The notes beneath the pieces were generated by a model. The model was given only the letters and a program-made list of their open reading frames with translations. It made no database searches and had not been told where the DNA came from. Made by a program: the position numbers and the translations under genes. 42,185 nucleotides of DNA. Origin: an uncultured bacterium. GTDB lineage: Bacteria; Gemmatimonadota; Gemmatimonadetes; Gemmatimonadales; Gemmatimonadaceae. The DNA is taken from contig CAXBQP010000027.1 in assembly GCA_963978095.1 (NCBI GenBank), forward strand, positions 1 to 42,185, read 5' to 3'. This document shows, piece after piece, positions 1 to 28,000 of this stretch. Position 1 is the first letter of the stretch, and the number at the start of each line of letters is the position of its first letter.

Positions 1-1174
<1,174 letters not shown>

Positions 1175-1530: not shown

Positions 1531-3207
1531 ATGGCTCCGCAGTTCATTTATGTAATGAAGGCGCTGCGCAAGGTGATACCGCCCCAGCGCATCATCCTGG
1601 ATGACATCTGGCTCTCCTTCTATCCGGGCGCCAAGATCGGCGTGCTGGGTCCCAACGGCGCCGGCAAGTCGTCGTTGCTGCGCATCATGGCGGGGGTCGA
1701 TCAGGAGTTCCAAGGGGAAGCCTGGGCGCACAAGGGCACGCGCATCGGGTATCTCCCGCAAGAGCCGCAGCTCGACCCCAACAAGACGGTCAAGGGGAAC
1801 GTCGATGAAGCGGTGGCGGTGCAGCGCGCCAAGCTCGACCGCTTCAATGAGGTCTCGATGAAGTTCGCCGAGCCCATGAGCGACGACGAGATGAACGCGC
1901 TGCTGGAGGAGCAGGGGAAGCTCCAGGAGTACATCGACAACCACAACCTGTGGGAGCTCGACCGCAAGGTGGAGATCGCCATGGATGCGTTGCGGCTGCC
2001 GCCAGCCGACGCCGACGTCACGCACCTGTCGGGTGGTGAACGGCGTCGCGTGGCGCTCTGCAAGGTGTTGCTCGAAGAGCCGGACATGCTGCTGCTGGAC
2101 GAACCCACCAACCACTTGGACGCGGAGAGCGTCGCGTGGTTGGAGCAGTTCCTGGCATCGTTCCCGGGCACGGTGGTGGCCATCACGCACGATCGCTACT
2201 TCCTCGACAACGTCGCCCAGTGGATCCTGGAGCTCGACCGCGGCAAGGGGATCCCGTGGGAAGGGAACTACACGAGCTGGCTCGACCAGAAGCAGAACCG
2301 CATGGCCCTCGAAGAGAAGACGGCGAGTGCCCGCCAGCGCACGCTGCAACGTGAACTCGAGTGGGTGCGCATGGCCCCACGGGCTCGGCAGGCCAAGAGC
2401 AAGGCGCGTATTCAGGCCTTCGAGGAGCTGCAGAGCGAGGAGCAGCAGGCCAAGGTCGCCACGAACGAGATCGTGATCCCGCCGCCGGCGCGGCTCGGCA
2501 ATGACGTCGTGATCGCCAAGAAGGCCAGCAAGGCGTTCGGGGAGAAATTGTTGTTCGACGATCTCAACTTCTCGTTGCCGCGTGGCGGGATCGTGGGGAT
2601 CATCGGCCCGAACGGCGCCGGCAAGACCACGCTGTTCAAGATCATGGGGGGCAAGGAGCGGCTCGACAGCGGCGAGATCAAGATCGGCGAGACCGTGCAG
2701 ATGGCCTACGTCGATCAGTCGCGGACGCTGAATCCCGAGAATACCGCCTGGCAGGAGATCTCCGGCGGACTCGAGCAGGTCATGGTGGGGAAGAAGGAGC
2801 TCAACAGCCGCGCGTATCTGAGCAGTTTCAACTTCCGCGGCTCGGATCAGCAGAAGAAGGTCGGGATCCTCTCGGGCGGCGAGCGGAACCGGCTGCATCT
2901 GGCCAAGACCCTCATGGAGGGGGCCAACCTCCTCCTGCTCGACGAACCGACCAACGACCTCGACGTCGACACGCTGCGCGCGCTGGAAGAAGCGCTGCTC
3001 GACTTCGCCGGCTGCGCGGTGGTCATCACCCACGATCGCTGGTTCCTCGACCGGATCGCGACGCACATCCTCGCCTTCGAAGGCGACTCGGAAGTGGTGT
3101 GGTTCGAAGGGAACTACGGCCTCTACATCGAGGACCTGCGCAAGCGAAAGGGGCCCGACGCCGATCAGCCGCACCGGATCAAGTTCAAGCCGCTCGTGCG
3201 CGAATAG
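1531..3207 (+). CDS. ettA: Energy-dependent translational throttle ABC-F ATPase EttA/ChvD
   Basis: MAPQFIYVM start, [19 protein letters not shown], two ABC cassettes ([24 protein letters not shown]), ELEWVR linker, PHRIKFKPL end. Confidence 0.95.
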
Positions 3208-3381
3208 GGTACGGCCCGGTTCCTGTCGACGGGGTGGAAGGAGCCGCGGGCGCGGTCCGTGCCGTAACGGAACGTCCGCGGCTGCGTATTGTATATGAAG
3301 GCAATAGGCCCCAGTGAGCCCGGTATCCTCCGGGCCCTGACGAAGGATGGAGGGGCCGTACGCTGGGTGCAGGAGGGAATC

Positions 3382-5511: not shown

Positions 5512-8253
5512 ATGACCGCTCTCACCAGATTGTCCCGCTTGGGCCGCCCGACGTCGATTCTTCGCGCCGGTGCGGCCCTTTCCTTCGTCACCGTGTTGGG
5601 CACCGTCGCCGCCGCGCGCGCCGTCGCGCAGCAGGGCAGCGTGCCGACGCCTGAATCCGTGCTTGGATTCCCGGTCGGCGCCGATTTCAAGCTCGCGACC
5701 TACGACGAAAGCATCCGCTACTTCCAACGACTCGCCGCCGCGAGCAACCGCATCAAGTTGCTCGATGTCGGCAAGACCTCGAGCGGACACGCGTGGACGC
5801 TCGCGGTAATCTCGAGCCCCGAGAACCTCGCCAAGCTCGATCACTATCGCGACATCGCGCAGAAGCTGGCGCATCCATCGGGACTCACCGACGACCAGGC
5901 GCGCACACTCGCCAAGGAAGGGCGCGCCTTCGTCGACATCAGCGGTGGGCTCCACGCGAGCGAGATCGCGGGATCGCAGCACACGATCCAGCTCGCGTAC
6001 GACATCCTCTCCAAGCCCGACGACCCAAAGATCAAGGCGATCCTCGACAACACCGTCCTGTTCCTCTGGCCGAGCATCAATCCGGACGGACAGAACATCG
6101 TGGTGAACTGGTATCGCGAGAACGTGGGCACGCCGTACGAGGTCAGCCCGTTGCACGAGCTCTACCAGAAGTACATCGGCCACGACAACAACCGCGACGG
6201 CTACATGCTGAACGTGGTGGAGTCGCGCGTCGTCGCACGGACCTGGCGGCAGTGGGAGCCGAATATCATCTACGTGCAACACCAGACGGCCCCCTTCCCG
6301 ACACGCATCTGGCTGCCGCCGTTCGCCGATCCGATCGCGCCGCGAGTGAATCCCATGATGTCGCGCGAAGTGAATACGATCGGCATGACGATTGCCCAGA
6401 ACCTGGAACAAGAGGGGAAGCCAGGGGCCACGCACATGGGGACGGGCTTCGATGCCTGGTATCCGGGCTACATCGACTACCTCCCGATGTTGCAGAACAT
6501 CGCCGCCTTCTGGACGGAGACCGCGCTCTACCAGTACGCCACGCCGCACTTCTATACAGTGCGTGACATCGGCGCCGACAATCTGCGACCGACATCGCTC
6601 TACAACAGCCCATGGCAAGGCGGATGGTGGCGGCTGAAGGACGCCGTGGATTACATGCGCACGGCATCGCTGGCGGTGCTCGATTACGCGGTGAAGTACC
6701 GCGAGGACCTCCTGTACAATCGATATCAGGCTGGACGCAACACGATCGCCAAATACACCGCGAATCCGCCGTATGCGTACATCGTGCCGCAGAACCAGCG
6801 CGATCCCGGCACCGCGGTCGAACTGCTTCGTCGCTTGGCCTTCAACGGGATCCGCGTGTCGCAACTCGAGCGTGATGTGCGCTATGAGAACACCACGTTC
6901 CCGCGCGGCACGTGGGTGATCCCGATGGACCAGGAATTCGGCGAGCTCGCGCGTCAGGTACTCGAGAAGCAGGAGTATCCGGATCTGCGCGAGTTCCCGG
7001 GCGGGCCGCCGGAGCAACCCTACGACGCGGCCGGCTGGACATTGCCCTATCAGATGGATGTGAAGGTGCTCGAGGCCAAGTCGCCGCTGCCGGCGGAGTT
7101 TCGCGCCGCGCTCAAGCCGCTCCAGGCCAAGGGGACCGATCTCGCGAACGCCGACGCGCCCTTCACCACCGATCCGCGCGCGGCGGCGATCATACCGCCT
7201 CCGGCGCGCATCACCGGAACTGGTGATCAACTCGTGCTGGATCCCGCACAGAACAACGCGTTCCGTGTCTTGGCGCGCGCGCTCAACGAGGGCGCCACCG
7301 TCACCTTCGACGGCGGACGCTACGCACTCAGCGGTACAGGAATCGACAAGGCGCTCGCGATGACGGAGGAGCTCGGACTTCGCGCCGAACGTCGCGCCGT
7401 GACGAGCAGCGGTGCGGCGGTGCGCAACCGCGTGGCCATCTACAAGCCGTGGACCGCGAGCATGGATGAAGGGTGGACGGAGTGGCTGCTCGACGGTTGG
7501 GGCTTCAAGTACACCATCCTCACCAACTCCGACATCCAAGCCGGCGACCTCAGCAGCAAATACGACGTGATCCTCTTCGCGAGTGATCGCGCAGGGTCGA
7601 TCACCGACGGTTTCGCCAAAGGGAGCGTGCCACCTCGCTTCGAAGGGGGGATCGGCGACGCGGGGATCCGTGCCCTCGACGCCTTCGTGCGCGCGGGTGG
7701 CTCGATGGTCACCTTCAGCCAGAGCAGCGACTTCGCGATCAACGCGCTGCATCTGCCGGTGAGGAACGTGGTCGCGGGACTCAAGCGGACGGACTACTTC
7801 TCGAGCGGAAGCATCCTCGAGGTGAACACCGACGCGTCACACCCGGTGATGGCGGGGATGCCGGAGAAAGCCAAGGTGTTCGTCGAAGGGAGCCCGGTGT
7901 TCACGACGACGGACGGATTCGAGGGCACCGTGCTCGCCCGCTACGCCAAGGACGGGTCCCCCCTCATGAGCGGCTACCTGCTCGGCGAGAAATACCTGCA
8001 AGGGCAGGCGGCGGCGGTCGATGTGAAGCATGGCCGCGGGCATGTGGTATTGATCGGATTCCGGCCGCAGTGGCGCGGGCAGCCGTTCGGGACCTTCAAG
8101 GTGGTGTTCAACTCGTTGTTCTTTGGAGGAGCCGTGTCGCAGGCAGCGAAATCCGCGCCCGTTGCGCCGTCCGCCGCACGAACACCGGAGCGCACCGCCG
8201 ACAAACCGGCGAATCGACCAGGAGCGCCGAACGACCGGCCATCAAGGCGGTGA
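5512..8253 (+). CDS. Exported M14-family zinc carboxypeptidase with C-terminal class-I GATase-like domain
   Basis: GLHASE (HxxE), NPDG, HDNNRD, QHQ Zn ligand, PYDAAGW, MDEGWT; signal peptide after ATG 5512 (the ORF-track extension upstream overlaps the previous gene). Confidence 0.88.
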   Translation: MTALTRLSRLGRPTSILRAGAALSFVTVLGTVAAARAVAQQGSVPTPESVLGFPVGADFKLATYDESIRYFQRLAAASNRIKLLDVGKTSSGHAWTLAVISSPENLAKLDHYRDIAQKLAHPSGLTDDQARTLAKEGRAFVDISGGLHASEIAGSQHTIQLAYDILSKPDDPKIKAILDNTVLFLWPSINPDGQNIVVNWYRENVGTPYEVSPLHELYQKYIGHDNNRDGYMLNVVESRVVARTWRQWEPNIIYVQHQTAPFPTRIWLPPFADPIAPRVNPMMSREVNTIGMTIAQNLEQEGKPGATHMGTGFDAWYPGYIDYLPMLQNIAAFWTETALYQYATPHFYTVRDIGADNLRPTSLYNSPWQGGWWRLKDAVDYMRTASLAVLDYAVKYREDLLYNRYQAGRNTIAKYTANPPYAYIVPQNQRDPGTAVELLRRLAFNGIRVSQLERDVRYENTTFPRGTWVIPMDQEFGELARQVLEKQEYPDLREFPGGPPEQPYDAAGWTLPYQMDVKVLEAKSPLPAEFRAALKPLQAKGTDLANADAPFTTDPRAAAIIPPPARITGTGDQLVLDPAQNNAFRVLARALNEGATVTFDGGRYALSGTGIDKALAMTEELGLRAERRAVTSSGAAVRNRVAIYKPWTASMDEGWTEWLLDGWGFKYTILTNSDIQAGDLSSKYDVILFASDRAGSITDGFAKGSVPPRFEGGIGDAGIRALDAFVRAGGSMVTFSQSSDFAINALHLPVRNVVAGLKRTDYFSSGSILEVNTDASHPVMAGMPEKAKVFVEGSPVFTTTDGFEGTVLARYAKDGSPLMSGYLLGEKYLQGQAAAVDVKHGRGHVVLIGFRPQWRGQPFGTFKVVFNSLFFGGAVSQAAKSAPVAPSAARTPERTADKPANRPGAPNDRPSRR

Positions 8254-11485: not shown

Positions 11486-11542
11486 CTGTGAATTCATGAA
11501 ATGTTCACAGTCAGTATACGCTTACCCCAGCGCTTTTACCAA
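11486..11542 (-). promoter_or_regulatory. Putative sigma70 promoter (TTGGTA-N18-TATACT) with downstream inverted repeat CTGTGAA-N11-TTCACAG
   Basis: -10 TATACT at 11518-11513, -35 at 11542-11537, palindrome at 11486-11510, in an AT-rich gap. Confidence 0.4.
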
Positions 11543-12790
11543 GTCGGCCACCTGCCGCACTTTCGCCTCGACGATCGGCGATTCGGGAAGTACGCCTTCC
11601 ACCACGTCGAGGGTCTTGAGCCCGTTGCCGGTGATGCAGATGACCACCTCGTCCTCGAACGTGAGCTTCCCCTCACGAGCGAGCTGCACGGCGCCAGCCA
11701 CGGTCGCCCCACCGGCGGTTTCCGTGAACACGCCGGTGGTCTCGGCGAGCAACCGGATGGCGCTCACGATTTCCTCGTCGCTGACCTTGGCGCCCCAACC
11801 GCCGCTCTCCACAATGGCCTTGGCGGCGTACGGGCCGTCGGCGGGATTCCCGATCGCGATGCTCTTGGCGATCGTGTTCGGGATCTCCGGCACGATCTGC
11901 GCACCACCGCTTTCCACGAGCCGCACGATCGGTGCGCAACCACTGGCCTGCGCTCCATACAGCCGCGGGAGCGGACCACTCACCAGTTCCGCCGATTGGA
12001 ACTCGCGGAACGCTTTACGAAGCTTGGTGAGTAGCGAACCGCCGGCCATCGGCGCGATCACTGCCGTGGGCAAGCGCCAGCCGAGCTGTTCCGCGATCTC
12101 GAAGCCCATCGTCTTCGAGCCTTCACCGTAGTAGCCGCGCAGATTCACATTCACGATCCCCCAGCCGAAACGGTCGGCGAGCTGCGCGCAGAGACGATTC
12201 ACGTCGTCATAGTGTCCCTTCACCCGCACGAGGTTCGGGTTGTAGATGGCGGTGCCGAGGATCTTGGCCTGTTCGAGATTCTCGGGGATGAAGATCCAGG
12301 CGTTGAGTCCCGCGCGCGCCGCGTGCGCTGCCACGGCGTTCGCAAGATTCCCCGTCGAGGCGCAGCCGATCGTGTCCAAGCCGAGGGCGTGCGCGGCGTT
12401 GATGGCCGTCGTGACCACGCGGTCCTTGAAGGACAGCGTCGGCTGGCTGACGGCGTCGTTCTTGATCCACACACGTCCCACGCCCAGATGCGCGGCGAGG
12501 CGCGGGGCGTCGATGAGCGGCGTGAAACCGGTGTCGCGCGAATACGCCGGCTCCCCGATGAACGGAAGCCATTCACGATAACGCCAGAGGTTCGGCGCGC
12601 GGCGGGCGATCTCCTCACGCCCCGGGAGCACACGATCCTTGGGGTACCTGGGTTCGAGCGGTCCGAGGCACTTGTCGCAGATCGCGATCGGTGCCGCGTC
12701 CTGCTCGGTGCCGCAGAGCTTGCAGATCTGCGGCAGGATGCCGAGCGGGGGGCGTGACGCGGCGACGGGTTCGACCAGGGAAGTAGCCAT
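11522..12790 (-). CDS. thrC: Threonine-synthase-family PLP enzyme (fold II) of the sulfur-carrier-associated type
   Basis: N-terminal CxxC..CxxC; LWRYREWLP; PTLSFKDR (PLP Lys); CASTGNLA; EGSKT; ITGNGLKT; ATG 2 nt after the moeZ stop. Confidence 0.88.
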   Translation of the reverse strand: MATSLVEPVAASRPPLGILPQICKLCGTEQDAAPIAICDKCLGPLEPRYPKDRVLPGREEIARRAPNLWRYREWLPFIGEPAYSRDTGFTPLIDAPRLAAHLGVGRVWIKNDAVSQPTLSFKDRVVTTAINAAHALGLDTIGCASTGNLANAVAAHAARAGLNAWIFIPENLEQAKILGTAIYNPNLVRVKGHYDDVNRLCAQLADRFGWGIVNVNLRGYYGEGSKTMGFEIAEQLGWRLPTAVIAPMAGGSLLTKLRKAFREFQSAELVSGPLPRLYGAQASGCAPIVRLVESGGAQIVPEIPNTIAKSIAIGNPADGPYAAKAIVESGGWGAKVSDEEIVSAIRLLAETTGVFTETAGGATVAGAVQLAREGKLTFEDEVVICITGNGLKTLDVVEGVLPESPIVEAKVRQVADLVKALG

Positions 12791-12792
12791 GG

Positions 12793-13986
12793 TTAGTACT
12801 TGGGAATGGTGGGGTCGACGTCGTCGCTGTAGCGGGTGATCCCGCCGGTGAGGTTCCACACGCGCGTGAAGCCTGCGGCCTGCAGCGTGCGGAGCGCCTT
12901 GGCACTGCGCACGCCGCCCTTGCACTGGACGACGATGTCGCGTGAGCGATCGAGTTCGTGGAGGCGATCCGCGACGGTGGCGAGCGGAATCAACCGGGCC
13001 CCTTCGATGCGCGCGATCTCCCACTCGTGCGGTTCGCGTACGTCGATCAGATCCACGGTGCCGAGCGTGAGCCGTTCGGCGAGCTCGCGCGGCGTGATCT
13101 CGGGGAGTTCCCCGTCGCGGGCGGTGGCGGCCGCGGCTTGCGGCACGCCGCAAAACTCCTGATAGTCGATCAGCTGCGTGATTTCACGCGTGCCGCATGA
13201 CGGACATTCCGGATTCTTGCGGAGCTTCACGGTGCGGAACTTGGCATCGAGCGAATCGACGAGCAGCAGGCGGCCGATGAGCGGCTCACCGATACCGAGG
13301 ATCAGCTTGATGGCTTCGGTGGCCTGGATCGTGCCGACCAGTCCGGGCAACACACCGAGTACCCCCCCCTCGGCGCACGACGGGACGAGTCCCGGCGGCG
13401 GCGGCGACGGATACAGGCAACGGTAGCACGGGCCGTTCTCGGTGGAGAACACGGAGGCTTGTCCTTCGAACCGATAGATGCTGCCGTACACATTCGGCTT
13501 GCCGAGGATCACGCACGCGTCGTTGACGAGATAGCGCGTGGGGAAGTTGTCGGTGCCGTCGATGACGAGATCATATCCGGAGATGATCTCCAAGGCATTC
13601 TCGCTCGTGAGCGCGCGTTCGTAGGTGGTGAGCTCCACGTTGGGGTTCACGTCGCGGATCCGGTCGCGTGCCGAGTCGAGCTTCTTGCGCCCGACGTCCT
13701 TGGTGCCGTGCAAGAGCTGGCGCTGGAGGTTGGTGACATCGACGACGTCGAAGTCCACCAGGCCGATGTGTCCCACGCCGGCGGCGGCGAGGTAGAGACC
13801 GAGCGGTGATCCCAGTCCTCCGGCGCCGATGAGCAGGACGCGCGCCGCCTTGAGCTTCTTCTGCCCGGTGATCCCCACGTCGGGGATGATCAGATGGCGC
13901 GAATAGCGGAGGATCTCCTCCGGGGAGAGATCGGGAAGGGCGTCGGCGGCGGCCGACGGTTCGGGAAGGAGCGTCGCGGCGGACAT
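12793..13986 (-). CDS. moeB: MoeZ/MoeB-rhodanese fusion (ubiquitin-like protein adenylyltransferase + sulfurtransferase)
   Basis: RYSRH, GAGGLGS, NLQRQ, DGTDNFPTRYLVND, CYRC, SCAEGGVLG, CPSC; rhodanese DVREPHE...CKGGVRS. Confidence 0.93.
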   Translation of the reverse strand: MSAATLLPEPSAAADALPDLSPEEILRYSRHLIIPDVGITGQKKLKAARVLLIGAGGLGSPLGLYLAAAGVGHIGLVDFDVVDVTNLQRQLLHGTKDVGRKKLDSARDRIRDVNPNVELTTYERALTSENALEIISGYDLVIDGTDNFPTRYLVNDACVILGKPNVYGSIYRFEGQASVFSTENGPCYRCLYPSPPPPGLVPSCAEGGVLGVLPGLVGTIQATEAIKLILGIGEPLIGRLLLVDSLDAKFRTVKLRKNPECPSCGTREITQLIDYQEFCGVPQAAAATARDGELPEITPRELAERLTLGTVDLIDVREPHEWEIARIEGARLIPLATVADRLHELDRSRDIVVQCKGGVRSAKALRTLQAAGFTRVWNLTGGITRYSDDVDPTIPKY

Positions 13987-13993
13987 GGGTGAC

Positions 13994-14266
13994 TCAGCCT
14001 CCCGCGATGGCCGGTACCACCGTGAGTTCGTCGCCATCATTGACGGTCGCCGAGAATCCGCCATTGAAGCGGATGTCTTCGTCGTTCAAGTAGAAGGTCA
14101 CGTAGGCGTAGGGATTGCCGTCCGTGTCGCGGAGGCGCGGTGCGAGGTCCGGGAAGCGGGCAACGGCATCGGACACGAGTTCGCCGACGGTCGTCCCGGA
14201 GACGGGGATTTCCTTGGCATCCGCCAGCTTGGCGAGGACGGCGGGGAGGAACAGAGTAGCAGCCAC
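13994..14266 (-). CDS. Ubiquitin-like sulfur carrier protein (MoaD/ThiS family, CysO-like)
   Basis: 90 aa; LNDEDIRF..GDELTVVPAIAGG with free C-terminal GG; AGGAG RBS. Confidence 0.92.
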   Translation of the reverse strand: MAATLFLPAVLAKLADAKEIPVSGTTVGELVSDAVARFPDLAPRLRDTDGNPYAYVTFYLNDEDIRFNGGFSATVNDGDELTVVPAIAGG

Positions 14267-14305
14267 GGGTGGAACTCCTGAGAAGAGATGGAACGGGGTG
14301 GGAAA

Positions 14306-15211
14306 TCAGGCGGTCTTGCGGGCGAACGGCTCGCGCGAGAACTGGGCGAGGGCCGCGGCTTCGTTGGCGTCGATGCTGTACCAGTGTGTGGGGGACGGGA
14401 ACTGACCGGATCGCACGTCGTCGGCGTAGGAGCGGAACGCCGTCTCGACGACCTGATCGAGATTGGCGTACCGGCTCACGAACTTCGGTGCGATATCGCC
14501 GACGAAGTTGCCGAGGATGTCGTGCGAGATCACGAGCTGCCCATCGAGATGCGGGCCTGCGCCGATGCCGTAGCAGATGATGTCGAGGCGCTCGCGGATG
14601 TAGGCAGCGCTCTCGGGGGGCAGTGCCTCGAACAGGATGGCGAACGCGCCGGCCTCCTGCAGGGCGAGGGCGTCGTCGAGCACGCGCTGCGTGGCAGCGA
14701 GGGTCTTCCCCTGCACGCGATAGCCGCCCTGCTGTCCGAGCGACTGCGGGGTGAGGCCGAGGTGGCCCATCACGGCGATCCCCGCGTCGGTGATGGCGCG
14801 GACGCGACTCGCGACGCGCGCGCCCCCTTCGAGCTTCACCGCATCGCAGCCCGCAGCGATGAAGGCGCCGGCGTTGCGAATGGCGTCCTCGTCGGTGACC
14901 TGATACGAGAGGAAGGGGAGATCGCCCACCACGAAGGCCCGCTGCGCGCCGCGCGCGACGGCGCGGGCGAAGACGAGCATCTCCGTCATCGTGATGCTCA
15001 GGGTGTTGGCATGGCCGAGGACCGTCATGGCCGCTGAGTCACCAACCAGGAGGAGATCCACGCCGGCGCGATCGGCAAAGGTCGCCGTCGGGTAGTCGTA
15101 GGCGGTGACGAACACCGCCTTCTCGTCGCGTGCCTTGAGGGCGGCGAGCGTGTGGACCGTGACCTTCTTGTGGGGCGCGCGGGTCGAGCAGTTGGCGGTG
15201 GTCGTGGTCAT
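14306..15211 (-). CDS. panB: 3-methyl-2-oxobutanoate (ketopantoate) hydroxymethyltransferase
   Basis: TAYDY, LVGDS, GDLPFLSY, AVKLEGG, GHLGLTPQS, YRVQGK, GIGAG, DGQ, PKFV motifs. Confidence 0.93.
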   Translation of the reverse strand: MTTTTANCSTRAPHKKVTVHTLAALKARDEKAVFVTAYDYPTATFADRAGVDLLLVGDSAAMTVLGHANTLSITMTEMLVFARAVARGAQRAFVVGDLPFLSYQVTDEDAIRNAGAFIAAGCDAVKLEGGARVASRVRAITDAGIAVMGHLGLTPQSLGQQGGYRVQGKTLAATQRVLDDALALQEAGAFAILFEALPPESAAYIRERLDIICYGIGAGPHLDGQLVISHDILGNFVGDIAPKFVSRYANLDQVVETAFRSYADDVRSGQFPSPTHWYSIDANEAAALAQFSREPFARKTA

Positions 15212-15468
15212 GACAGGTTCTTCAGGCGAGGGGTCCAACGCAGAACGGCCATTCTCCTGGGGGGAGAACGGCCGCAAATACGCATTGACAGTGGAACTGA
15301 TCGCCTGGAGGTATCCGCGAGCGTACCGGATACGAAAATGCCCGGGGGCATAGGGGGCCACCAGGCGGTCGCGTTTTTAGCATTTCTTTAGCGTGGCTGC
15401 AATAGGCGGCAAATGACCACGGGCTTCGATTGTCTGATAAGGATCGCCGGTCTGGACGTGGAAGTCAA
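15212..15468 (-). promoter_or_regulatory. Promoter plus long structured 5' leader of the panB-sulfur-carrier operon (candidate attenuator/riboswitch)
   Basis: TTGACT (15468-15463)-N17-GATCCT; multibranch stem 15299-15370; 12-bp hairpin 15246-15274 with a G-U pair on the minus strand. Confidence 0.5.
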
Positions 15469-16170: not shown

Positions 16171-16243
16171 TGGGGTGTAGCTCAACTGGCAGAGCATCGC
16201 ACTGTTAATGCGACGGTTGGTGGTTCGATTCCACCCGCTCCAG
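16171..16243 (+). tRNA. tRNA-Asn (GTT), CCA not encoded
   Basis: Acceptor TGGGGTG/CGCTCCA+G; D arm GCTC..GAGC; anticodon arm TCGCA-CTGTTAA-TGCGA; T arm GGTGG-TTCGATT-CCACC. Confidence 0.96.
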
Positions 16244-25772: not shown

Positions 25773-26699
25773 CTAGCCGCTCGCCCGCTGCAGCGCCTCC
25801 AGCACACCAGCCAACCGCACGCTTTCCTCACGCCCGAACACCGGTACCGCGTCCCCGGCGACGACGTCGGCGAAGTGCTCGACGAGACCGGCAAAGGCAT
25901 CGCCGCCCGCACATGCGATGCGCGCGATCGACCCGTCCTTCCGCTCCACGCACAGCTCGCTCGGCTCGAGCGCCCCCGGCACGTGCGCCCCCGGGAGCGT
26001 GATGACGGCGTCGCTGGTCGTGAGCGCCATCGTGCGGTGCACCGGTGCGTCGAACGACACGTGAAACGAGGAGCCGAATCCGTCGCCCCAATCGATCCAG
26101 CCGGTCATGGACGTGTCGATCTGCGCGCTGTTGCGGACGGCGTTCGCGGCGACGCGCACGGGGTGATGCCCCGCCATCATCATGAAGGGCGCGATGCAGT
26201 AGATTCCGACGTCGAACAACGCGCCGGCGCCTCGCGGGTCGAGGCGATGATCATCGCTCGACAGATTCATCGGCCAGCTGAACGCGCCGTGTCCCGACTG
26301 CGGGGTCCCGACCTCTCCGGATGCGACGAGCGACAGCAGGCGACGCGCGCGCGGGTGATGTGGCCACATGTAGGCTTCGAGCACCACACGCCCGGCGGCC
26401 TCGGCGTGCTCGCACACGGCAATCGTGTCGGCCACGGAGAGCGTGAGCGGCTTTTCGCAAAGCACGTGCTTTCCCGCCTCCAAGGCGCGATGCGTCCACG
26501 TCGCATGCAGGTGATTCGGGAGCGGGTTGTAGACCGCGTCGATGTCGGACCGCGTGAGCATGGCGTCATAGGCGGCCAACGAATCCCCCGCGCGGCTCGC
26601 CTCCGCGACGATCGTGTGTCCCGAGGCGAGCAGCGCGGGCTTCAGACTCTTGCGGTAGATGCGGCTGGATCCGCCAAGGACTCCCCAGCGTAATGGCAT
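25773..26699 (-). CDS. Gfo/Idh/MocA-family NAD(P)-dependent oxidoreductase
   Basis: LRWGVLG, AVYNPLPNHLH, GKHVLCEKP, GALFDVGIY. Confidence 0.9.
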   Translation of the reverse strand: MPLRWGVLGGSSRIYRKSLKPALLASGHTIVAEASRAGDSLAAYDAMLTRSDIDAVYNPLPNHLHATWTHRALEAGKHVLCEKPLTLSVADTIAVCEHAEAAGRVVLEAYMWPHHPRARRLLSLVASGEVGTPQSGHGAFSWPMNLSSDDHRLDPRGAGALFDVGIYCIAPFMMMAGHHPVRVAANAVRNSAQIDTSMTGWIDWGDGFGSSFHVSFDAPVHRTMALTTSDAVITLPGAHVPGALEPSELCVERKDGSIARIACAGGDAFAGLVEHFADVVAGDAVPVFGREESVRLAGVLEALQRASG

Positions 26700-26841
26700 G
26701 CGCGTGCCTCGGTGCGTACCGCGTTCACAACTCGTGGGGTCGGGCGCCTGTCTGGAAGTATGGCAACGCGTGACCTTTACGCCAGCCGCCCCGAGCGGTT
26801 CATTAATCCGTCCTCGTGTTCCCCCCCCGCCCCCCATCGCC

Positions 26842-27234
26842 ATGACCATCTACGGCACCGCGTTGCTCGCTGCCTGTCATATCCTGGGAATCCTGCTCGG
26901 CGAACTCCTCGGGCGCGCGCTCGGGGTCAAGACCAACGTCGGGGGTGTCGGGATTGCCATGCTCCTGCTGATCGCGGCGCGATATCACGGGCATGCGCGC
27001 GGGTGGCTCTCTGCCAAGAGCGAAGACGGCGTCAACTATTGGGCCGCCCTGTACATCCCGGTCGTGATCGCGATGGCCATGCAACAGAACGTGCTCAAGG
27101 CGATCAGTGGCGGACCGATGGCACTGCTCGCGGCCGTGTTGACGGTGGCCGCGTGCGCGGTGTGCATCTCGTGGATCAATCGCCGCGAAGTGATCCCCGC
27201 CGGCAACACGTCCACCACCGACGTGAGGAGCTGA
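26842..27234 (+). CDS. madL: Malonate transporter subunit MadL
   Basis: MTIYGTALLAAC..G..LG..LGVKTNVGGVGIAMLLLI, YIPVVIAMA..QNV..A..GGP. Confidence 0.92.
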   Translation: MTIYGTALLAACHILGILLGELLGRALGVKTNVGGVGIAMLLLIAARYHGHARGWLSAKSEDGVNYWAALYIPVVIAMAMQQNVLKAISGGPMALLAAVLTVAACAVCISWINRREVIPAGNTSTTDVRS

Positions 27235-27238
27235 ACCG

Positions 27239-28000
27239 ATGGACGCCCTCCTCCAGAAGATCGCGACCGACAACGGATTGATCCTCTCGTTCGCGGTGAT
27301 CGGGCTGGTGGTGTTCTGCTCCGGGTACATCAGTCGGTGGCTGACCATGGGGCGGATCCAAGGATCGGCGATCGCGATCCTCATCGGTCTCGCCCTCGCG
27401 TATGTCGGTGGGCGCATGACCGGCGGCAGCAAAGGACTCGCCGATATCAGCTACTTCAGCGGCATCGCGCTGTTGGGGGGCAACATGCTTCGCGATTTCG
27501 CGATCGTCGCCACGGCCTTTGAAGTCCACCCTGCCGAAGCCAAGCGCGCCGGGGGGATCGGTGCGATCGCGCTGCTGATCGGCACGGTGCTCCCGTTCAT
27601 GATCGGGGTGTCTGTAGCGTGGGTGTTCGGGTATCGCGATGCGGTGAGCCTCACCACGATCGGCGCGGGCGCCATCACCTACATCGTTGGACCGGTCACC
27701 GGAACGGCCATCGGGGCGACCCCGGAAGTCATCACCCTCAGCATTGCGGCGGGGGTGTTCAAGGCGATCCTCGTGATGGTCGTCACGCCCATGCTCGCCG
27801 GTTTCATGCGCCTCAAGACGCCGCGGTCCGCCATGGTGTTCGGTGGGCTCGCCGGCACGGTCAGCGGCGTCTCGGCGGGGCTCGCGGCGACGGACCGGAC
27901 CTTGGTGCCCTATGGCGCCCTGGTGGCCACCTTCCATACCGGGATCGGATGTCTCTTGGCACCGTCCGTGCTGTACTTCGTGGTGCGAGCCCTGGTCTGA
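27239..28000 (+). CDS. madM: Malonate transporter subunit MadM
   Basis: GSAIAILIGL, GGSKGLADI, GGNMLRDFAIVATAF, TYIVGPVTG, LVPYGALVATFHTG. Confidence 0.93.
   Translation: MDALLQKIATDNGLILSFAVIGLVVFCSGYISRWLTMGRIQGSAIAILIGLALAYVGGRMTGGSKGLADISYFSGIALLGGNMLRDFAIVATAFEVHPAEAKRAGGIGAIALLIGTVLPFMIGVSVAWVFGYRDAVSLTTIGAGAITYIVGPVTGTAIGATPEVITLSIAAGVFKAILVMVVTPMLAGFMRLKTPRSAMVFGGLAGTVSGVSAGLAATDRTLVPYGALVATFHTGIGCLLAPSVLYFVVRALV

Follow-up and report, generated by a model that had tools for sequence, protein, structure and literature searches.

The DNA considered here is a stretch of 42,185 nucleotides (hereafter the window; contig CAXBQP010000027.1 of assembly GCA_963978095.1) from the genome of an uncultured bacterium of the Gemmatimonadaceae (91% complete; designated G000, with other G and L numbers denoting sampled genomes and loci), and it contains a methionine-branch operon, panB2-metO-moeZ-metM, which is probably controlled by an S-adenosylmethionine (SAM)-II riboswitch. 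All four genes lie on the minus strand. The panB2 gene (14306-15211; PF02548, 1.7e-99) encodes a paralog of the PanB family with the ketopantoate hydroxymethyltransferase fold; metO (13994-14266; PF02597 ThiS, 8.2e-11) encodes a ThiS/MoaD-like sulfur carrier of 90 amino acids ending in AIAGG; moeZ (12793-13986; PF00899, 1.9e-83, and PF00581, 2.9e-18) encodes a fusion of an E1-like adenylyltransferase and a rhodanese sulfurtransferase; and metM (11522-12790; PF00291, 3.5e-65) encodes a pyridoxal phosphate (PLP) enzyme of the ThrC fold with an N-terminal zinc ribbon (CxxC..CxxC). The coordinates of the open reading frames (ORFs) bear out the co-directional arrangement with gaps of 39, 7, and 2 nt that had been described in the original prediction, made from the sequence alone; likewise, no moaE, thiG, cysM, or JAMM gene was found among the ORFs scanned in the window. 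The family assignments hold in both Pfam and NCBIfam: PanB2 reaches 285.6 bits against the panB model TIGR00222 (cut-off 207.6), MetM reaches 251.6 bits against the thrC model TIGR00260 (cut-off 167.1), and the moeZ product scores 279.7 bits for ThiF and 66.6 bits for Rhodanese; since its score against the MoeZ model NF005902 (517.7 bits) stays under the cut-off of 647, it is called MoeZ-like by architecture.

The putative riboswitch, which the original prediction did not include, was detected upstream of panB2 in an Rfam scan as a SAM-II (SAM_alpha, RF00521) aptamer match at 15356-15430 on the minus strand. Its 35.3 bits (E = 1.1e-5 in 2.3 kb) fall short of the gathering score of 36 by 0.7 bit; it spans the full model (1-79) and retains the conserved core. 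Of 12 related loci, 8 have an orthologous element that reaches the gathering score, as do four of eight further loci (L123, L124, L108, and L098; L100 falls just under, with 35.2 bits), and the 12 elements above it score 36.3 to 51.8 bits. The SAM-II core motif also occurs upstream of the operon in 23 of the best 80 of 563 MetM loci. The element resembles known SAM-II riboswitches (RF00521/RF01726) in its full-length match, its conserved core, and its position upstream of methionine genes, in the window as in the related loci; it differs in its Gemmatimonadota host, its score just under the gathering threshold, and its distance of approximately 145 nt from the panB2 start codon. Among 30 unique copies, the P1 stem is nearly invariant and the single variable loop/tail pair is inconsistent; the copies are too alike to assess covariation in the pseudoknot. 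The leader between aptamer and panB2 (15212-15355, minus strand) is 92% identical to that of the nearest related locus, L008, and contains a weak terminator-like hairpin (15338-15351) as well as a 13-bp hairpin. A 47-codon upstream ORF (15208-15351, minus strand) begins just past the aptamer, and its TGA overlaps the ATG of panB2 (ATGA); conserved with L008 at the nucleotide level only, it may be a chance ORF. A transfer RNA (tRNA) gene lies approximately 750 nt upstream of the riboswitch (16171-16243, plus strand); locus L097, from the same genus, has a tRNA gene at the corresponding position (3193-3265).

Predicted sulfur transfer to O-phosphohomoserine

In Streptomyces albulus, O-phospho-L-homoserine is converted to homocysteine by a thiocarboxylate route that involves MetM, MetO, MoeZ, and Mec, according to two citing papers, one on GapMind from 2026 and one in mSystems from 2025 (Hasebe et al. 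2024, Appl Environ Microbiol 90:e0124724, as cited in PMC13759103 and PMC12172450). By analogy, the MoeZ-like protein of the window would adenylate and sulfurate the GG terminus of MetO, and MetM, as a ThrC-like PLP enzyme, would use the resulting MetO-thiocarboxylate on O-phosphohomoserine to form homocysteine; homology and gene context make it highly probable that the three window proteins perform this chemistry. The original prediction had proposed such a route for the ThrC-like enzyme, the carrier, and MoeZ, and had tied it to the synthesis of pantoate and coenzyme A (CoA); the sulfur-carrier reading is very probably correct, although the route has been published, and the CoA link is not supported, as discussed below. 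The operon shares with the published description of the S. albulus route a ThrC-like enzyme encoded beside a GG-terminated ThiS/MoaD-like carrier, a MoeZ-type E1-rhodanese protein, probable control by a SAM riboswitch, and dependence on homoserine kinase. The window differs from that description in the SAM-II class of its putative riboswitch, in the placement of moeZ inside the operon, in the presence of a PanB paralog in the operon, in a MetO that already ends in GG, and in the missing Mec/JAMM peptidase, for which the best Prok-JAB match in the 91% complete genome G000 has 21.6 bits (cut-off 25). MetO carries no extra residue after the GG and needs no C-terminal trimming.

MetM is distinct from the threonine-branch enzyme of the same genome: a second, thrB-linked ThrC, the existence of which the original prediction had proposed to check, is encoded on contig C55 and is only 34% identical to MetM, in which the lysine motif SFKD is visible. 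The homoserine kinase gene thrB of G000 is located at C55:13449-14543; in relatives, thrB sits inside the operon. The related loci assign the organism to the Gemmatimonadaceae. At L008, MetM is 95% identical to that of the window, and among the best 80 of the 563 MetM relatives found, a MetO homolog adjoins MetM at 57 loci and MoeZ at 37. NCBIfam holds no MetM-specific model and its ThrC equivalog accepts MetM; annotation pipelines still call this protein threonine synthase, and recognition of the route would correct methionine-pathway predictions for Gemmatimonadota. A third ThrC-like paralog in G000 (C17:47906-48967, L003) is 35% identical to MetM and scores below the thrC cut-off; counterparts with 33-39% identity occur in nearly all of 81 sampled family genomes, including those without thrB or hom, the gene for homoserine dehydrogenase.

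PanB2 and pantothenate synthesis

In the sample of 81 Gemmatimonadaceae genomes (at least 85% complete, and including the genomes G007 and G026, which are flagged as unpublished), PanB proteins fall into two classes by identity to the window protein: those encoded adjacent to panC, with 39-54% identity, and the PanB2 class, with 65-76%, which was found in 14 genomes, G000 included. Identity within the PanB2 clade ranges from 65 to 92%, compared to 39-54% with the panC-linked PanB. In a maximum-likelihood tree of 125 rows (quick search), PanB2 forms a single clade of 40 rows with a support of 100 in the Shimodaira-Hasegawa-like approximate likelihood ratio test (SH-aLRT), apart from the main canonical PanB clade (16 rows, support 99). 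A search of 1.84 billion cluster representatives returned a single full-length sequence and a few fragmentary ones above 60% identity, which indicates that the PanB2 clade is narrow.

PanB2 is the sole PanB in G000, and it could be an ordinary ketopantoate hydroxymethyltransferase serving pantothenate and CoA synthesis, co-transcribed by chance with methionine genes, as the original prediction had mainly proposed. It passes the panB equivalog model, it matches the PanB of Mycobacterium tuberculosis (1oy0, E = 3.6e-63) in fold and family, and its residues D58, S59, D97, K126, E128, H150, and E195 align to D45, S46, D84, K112, E114, H136, and E181 of Escherichia coli PanB (1m3u), which we take to be the catalytic residues; all of them match canonical PanB, so that ordinary ketopantoate activity is compatible with this active site. 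Against this function stands the distribution of panC, which was not found in G000. It was missing, along with a canonical panB, from 4 of the 14 PanB2 genomes of the sample (G000, G037, G027, and G031), as panC was from five of five further PanB2 genomes of the same genus that are 95-100% complete (G116, G236, G274, G198, and G261); within the genus of the window, none of seven PanB2-bearing genomes has panC. The remaining 10 PanB2 genomes of the sample do have panC, and all 10 keep a canonical panB beside it, apart from PanB2. The original prediction had suggested looking for a panB next to panC; judged by the coordinates of panC, which was not a query in the locus survey, PanB2 is located beside panC at none of 38 loci. 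Together with the probable control of the PanB2 operon by a SAM riboswitch, these patterns make the pantothenate function very improbable, and PanB2 is most likely a distinct paralog that acts in the methionine branch. Because annotations uniformly present the protein as an enzyme of vitamin B5 synthesis, pantothenate prototrophy is predicted too often.

PanB2 shares fold, family, and conserved catalytic residues with the canonical enzymes of E. coli and M. tuberculosis; it differs from them by its separate clade, by its occurrence in panC-less genomes and never next to panC, by its association with a SAM riboswitch and methionine genes, and by consistently bulkier residues at active-site positions where smaller residues widen the scope of the E. 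coli enzyme. The latter are Y214, L226, and I228, aligned to E. coli I200, I212, and V214, together with L193; at PanB2 positions 214, 226, 228, and 193, the canonical PanB proteins of the family carry I, V, V, and V in 23 to 25 of 25 sequences. From the alignment, the bulkier positions would fit a smaller substrate. The motifs that the original prediction had singled out as variant were rejected as a signature of PanB2: the GDSAA of GDSAAM is equally present in M. tuberculosis PanB (1oy0).

Proposed homoserine supply in PanB2 genomes

The 38 PanB2 loci (at least 64% identity), drawn from a collection of genomes, from the genomes sampled here, and from a scan of metagenomes, and possibly including duplicates, all have methionine-pathway neighbors, and the association of this panB with methionine genes, for which the original prediction had proposed a neighborhood survey, is therefore kept in relatives. 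The most common pattern is riboswitch-(aminotransferase)-panB2-(thrB)-metO-moeZ-metM, and homoserine kinase is encoded inside the PanB2 operon in G048, G027, G025, G028, G039, and G026. A second operon type, metY-metX-panB2, occurs at L104 and L108, of which L108 is headed by the same SAM-II riboswitch; here MetY passes TIGR01326 and the MetX-like protein remains below the MetX cut-offs. At the remaining loci, several of them on short contigs, only the aminotransferase or thrB lies beside PanB2. The MetM and the metX-metY routes share no enzymes and both start from homoserine; the common denominator of the PanB2 neighborhoods is therefore the use of homoserine.

Homoserine dehydrogenase, counted by PF00742, was not found in G000, nor in its closest sampled relative, G116 (100% complete, 10 contigs, PanB2 92% identical). 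In a set of 301 genomes (at least 90% complete, including the flagged unpublished genomes G026, G225, G204, G296, and G302), any hom was present in 12 of 55 genomes with PanB2 and in 175 of 246 genomes without it, and the short, monofunctional hom in none of the former and in 39 of the latter; without the unpublished genomes, on which alone no claim rests, the counts for any hom are 12 of 53 and 172 of 243. Thus, 43 of the 55 PanB2 genomes have no hom at all. The vitamin-B5 annotation of PanB2 thus conceals a gap: homoserine kinase, threonine synthase, and MetM or MetX/MetY are retained in dozens of nearly complete genomes that have no homoserine dehydrogenase. Among the hom-less genomes of the 81-genome sample, thrB is retained in 13 of 13 with PanB2 compared to 8 of 28 without.

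The short hom is found in the place that PanB2 occupies elsewhere. In 10 sampled genomes it immediately precedes metM, in G042 it lies between metX and metY, and the order hom-thrB-metM recurs in eight Acidobacteriota loci. The hom-metM operons of G054 and G052 are headed by a SAM-II riboswitch, and the same riboswitch heads both hom-metM operons (L123 and L124) and PanB2 operons (L098 and L108). The methionine-linked short hom and PanB2 are thus alike in operon slot and riboswitch and, on the proposal below, in providing homoserine under methionine control beside an enzyme of the threonine branch; the ThrA and MetL isozymes of E. coli offer a comparison for such a separation of homoserine supply between the methionine and threonine branches. 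The two proteins differ in that their folds are unrelated and in their chemistry: the substrate that hom reduces is aspartate semialdehyde, and PanB2 would instead join C3 and C1 units into the C4 skeleton.

PanB2 is found in the riboswitch-controlled slot of the short hom, in two operon types. The simplest PanB chemistry that leads towards homoserine is hydroxymethylation of pyruvate followed by transamination. PanB2 would hydroxymethylate pyruvate to 4-hydroxy-2-oxobutanoate, with 5,10-methylene-tetrahydrofolate or formaldehyde as the C1 source, and an aminotransferase, in relatives the one encoded in the operon, would convert this product to L-homoserine, from which homoserine kinase would then make the substrate of MetM. 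In the organism of the window, the class-I aminotransferase gene that is found ahead of panB2 in the closest relatives has been deleted: a blastn comparison with L008 places the junction at 15207-15236 (minus strand), where approximately 1.28 kb (L008 2309-3588) are absent. No ortholog of this aminotransferase was found elsewhere in G000 (best match 37% identity), and a housekeeping aminotransferase would have to serve. PanB2 would act as a SAM-repressed source of homoserine, taking the part that the short hom has in the corresponding operon slot of sister lineages. The formation of 4-hydroxy-2-oxobutanoate from pyruvate by PanB2, with its transamination to homoserine, is put forward tentatively from sequence comparison and context, as a possibility somewhat short of even; the whole explanation, comprising the operon, the known sulfur chemistry, and homoserine supply by PanB2, comes close to an even chance. 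The original prediction had as a fallback a dedicated hydroxymethylated keto acid destined for an unknown sulfur metabolite; the keto acid is closer to the evidence, and the destination is not, since the likely product would feed homoserine.

The same chemistry is used in the synthetic homoserine cycle, the original work on which was reportedly done in E. coli; that cycle is engineered and relies on promiscuous activity, whereas PanB2 is proposed as a natural, dedicated, and regulated paralog. In a recent preprint, the cycle is described as the addition of pyruvate to formaldehyde to give 4-hydroxy-2-oxobutanoate, which is transaminated to homoserine, and Pseudomonas putida PanB partly rescued a hom-deletion selection strain by way of this intermediate (bioRxiv 10.1101/2025.02.17.638773). 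According to a review, the E. coli enzyme is a class II aldolase that adds 2-oxoacids to formaldehyde, and its variants I202A, I212A, and V214G have a wider nucleophile scope. A literature search on PanB in connection with SAM riboswitches, homoserine, or Gemmatimonadetes, and on "panB2" or PanB paralogs, returned nothing relevant, with supplements outside the search; the MetM/MetO/MoeZ part is already known, and a PanB paralog dedicated to the methionine operon is the new element. If the proposal is true, nature already uses the C3 + C1 homoserine route that is being engineered for methanol and formate assimilation, and PanB2 is a dedicated, evolved enzyme for it. That PanB2 and an aminotransferase might constitute a natural, aspartate-independent, and SAM-regulated entry to methionine, and in hom-less genomes to threonine, is suggested by genome comparison with rather more doubt than confidence.

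As a caveat, several observations weigh against these interpretations, in addition to the missing Mec candidate in G000 and the fully conserved PanB active site. A hom gene coexists with PanB2 in 12 of the 55 genomes, and within one close group a long, ThrA-like hom is present in five of five genomes with PanB2 and in five of five without; PanB2 is consequently not a simple substitute, but at most a supply for the methionine branch and not a general replacement, and the strict form of the idea, that PanB2 simply replaces hom, was rejected. The operon aminotransferase, deleted in the window, is missing at about 16 of the 36 PanB2 loci that could be assessed for it, and occurs in operons without PanB2 as well; as an obligate partner of PanB2 it was likewise rejected. 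If the only source of homoserine were repressed by SAM, threonine synthesis would run short as well, a difficulty that applies equally to G020, G072, and G051, whose only hom is linked to metM. In the 301 genomes, few genera have both PanB2 and the short hom, and the mutual exclusion may thus partly reflect phylogeny. No hom was found in 71 of the 246 genomes without PanB2, and 8 of the 81 sampled genomes have thrB and neither hom nor PanB2 (G014, G018, G023, G032, G058, G075, G078, and G080; in G075, metM abuts a contig end), so that the family must have some further source of homoserine or take it up. Finally, G000 keeps, besides thrB-thrC, an aspartokinase and an asd-like gene, which would make aspartate semialdehyde available to an unrecognized reductase, and its thrB-thrC genes are divergent from an amino-acid permease gene, the whole arrangement lying at C55:12155-15822 (L125). 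The same divergent arrangement was seen in G023 and G078 (L131 and L135), both without hom, and the permease might import homoserine or threonine.

These last points would be accounted for if homoserine in hom-less genomes came from an unrecognized, non-orthologous dehydrogenase or from uptake, with PanB2 unrelated to it and the anticorrelation with hom a product of shared ancestry: the eight genomes with thrB alone, the 71 hom-less genomes without PanB2, the permease of G000, G023, and G078, the aspartokinase and asd-like genes, and the almost disjoint genera all agree with such a source. Yet in the 81-genome sample, 28 genomes have neither hom nor PanB2, and 20 of these are without thrB too and appear to be auxotrophs, whereas all 13 hom-less genomes with PanB2 keep it; and PanB2 varies within the genus of the window, where 10 of 21 genomes have it and hom occurs in 1 of these 10 compared to 5 of the 11 without PanB2. 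This explanation is accordingly considered improbable.

A better, but still unlikely, alternative is that PanB2 belongs to the methionine branch with another reaction, such as hydroxymethylation of a different 2-oxo acid, a retro-aldol cleavage that hands a one-carbon unit to tetrahydrofolate, from which homocysteine would be methylated, or a role in the handling of formaldehyde. PanB chemistry uses 5,10-methylene-tetrahydrofolate, and a one-carbon unit carried by folate is required to make methionine; moreover, the association with operon and riboswitch shows only a relation to methionine, PanB2 and a long hom coexist in at least 17 genomes, and in G055 an aminotransferase-PanB2-class-III-aminotransferase module (L105 4626-8341) is located away from metM, with no riboswitch detected there at E 0.01. 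However, no plausible hydroxymethyl donor for such a reaction is encoded nearby, and this alternative leaves unexplained why 43 of 55 PanB2 genomes have no hom yet keep thrB, as well as the shared operon slot and the zero co-occurrence of PanB2 and the short hom.

Other features of the window and of related loci

The other proteins encoded in the window are unrelated to the operon; they include an IS3-type transposase, an ABC-F protein, peptidases, and a malonate transporter, among others. The IS3-family transposase is located at the window start (81-1174, minus strand) in two frames (HTH_Tnp_1 and the rve integrase core), and an ALIL pseudoknot frameshift element (RF01497, 83.7 bits) was detected within it at 780-896. 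The malonate transporter is encoded by the gene pair madL and madM (26659-28000, plus strand). At the related locus L098 of G028, a long, perfect-looking hairpin lies between panB2 and thrB (6966-7063); it matches several microRNA precursor models on both strands and is probably a palindromic repeat or a terminator. The long hom genes of two PanB2-less, long-read metagenome-assembled genomes (L188 and L189) are each split by a TGA, either through decay or through sequencing error. In G014, a 212-amino-acid ORF overlapping the thrB start (L127 5336-5974, plus strand) has no match in Pfam or NCBIfam; it may provide another of the missing functions related to homoserine.

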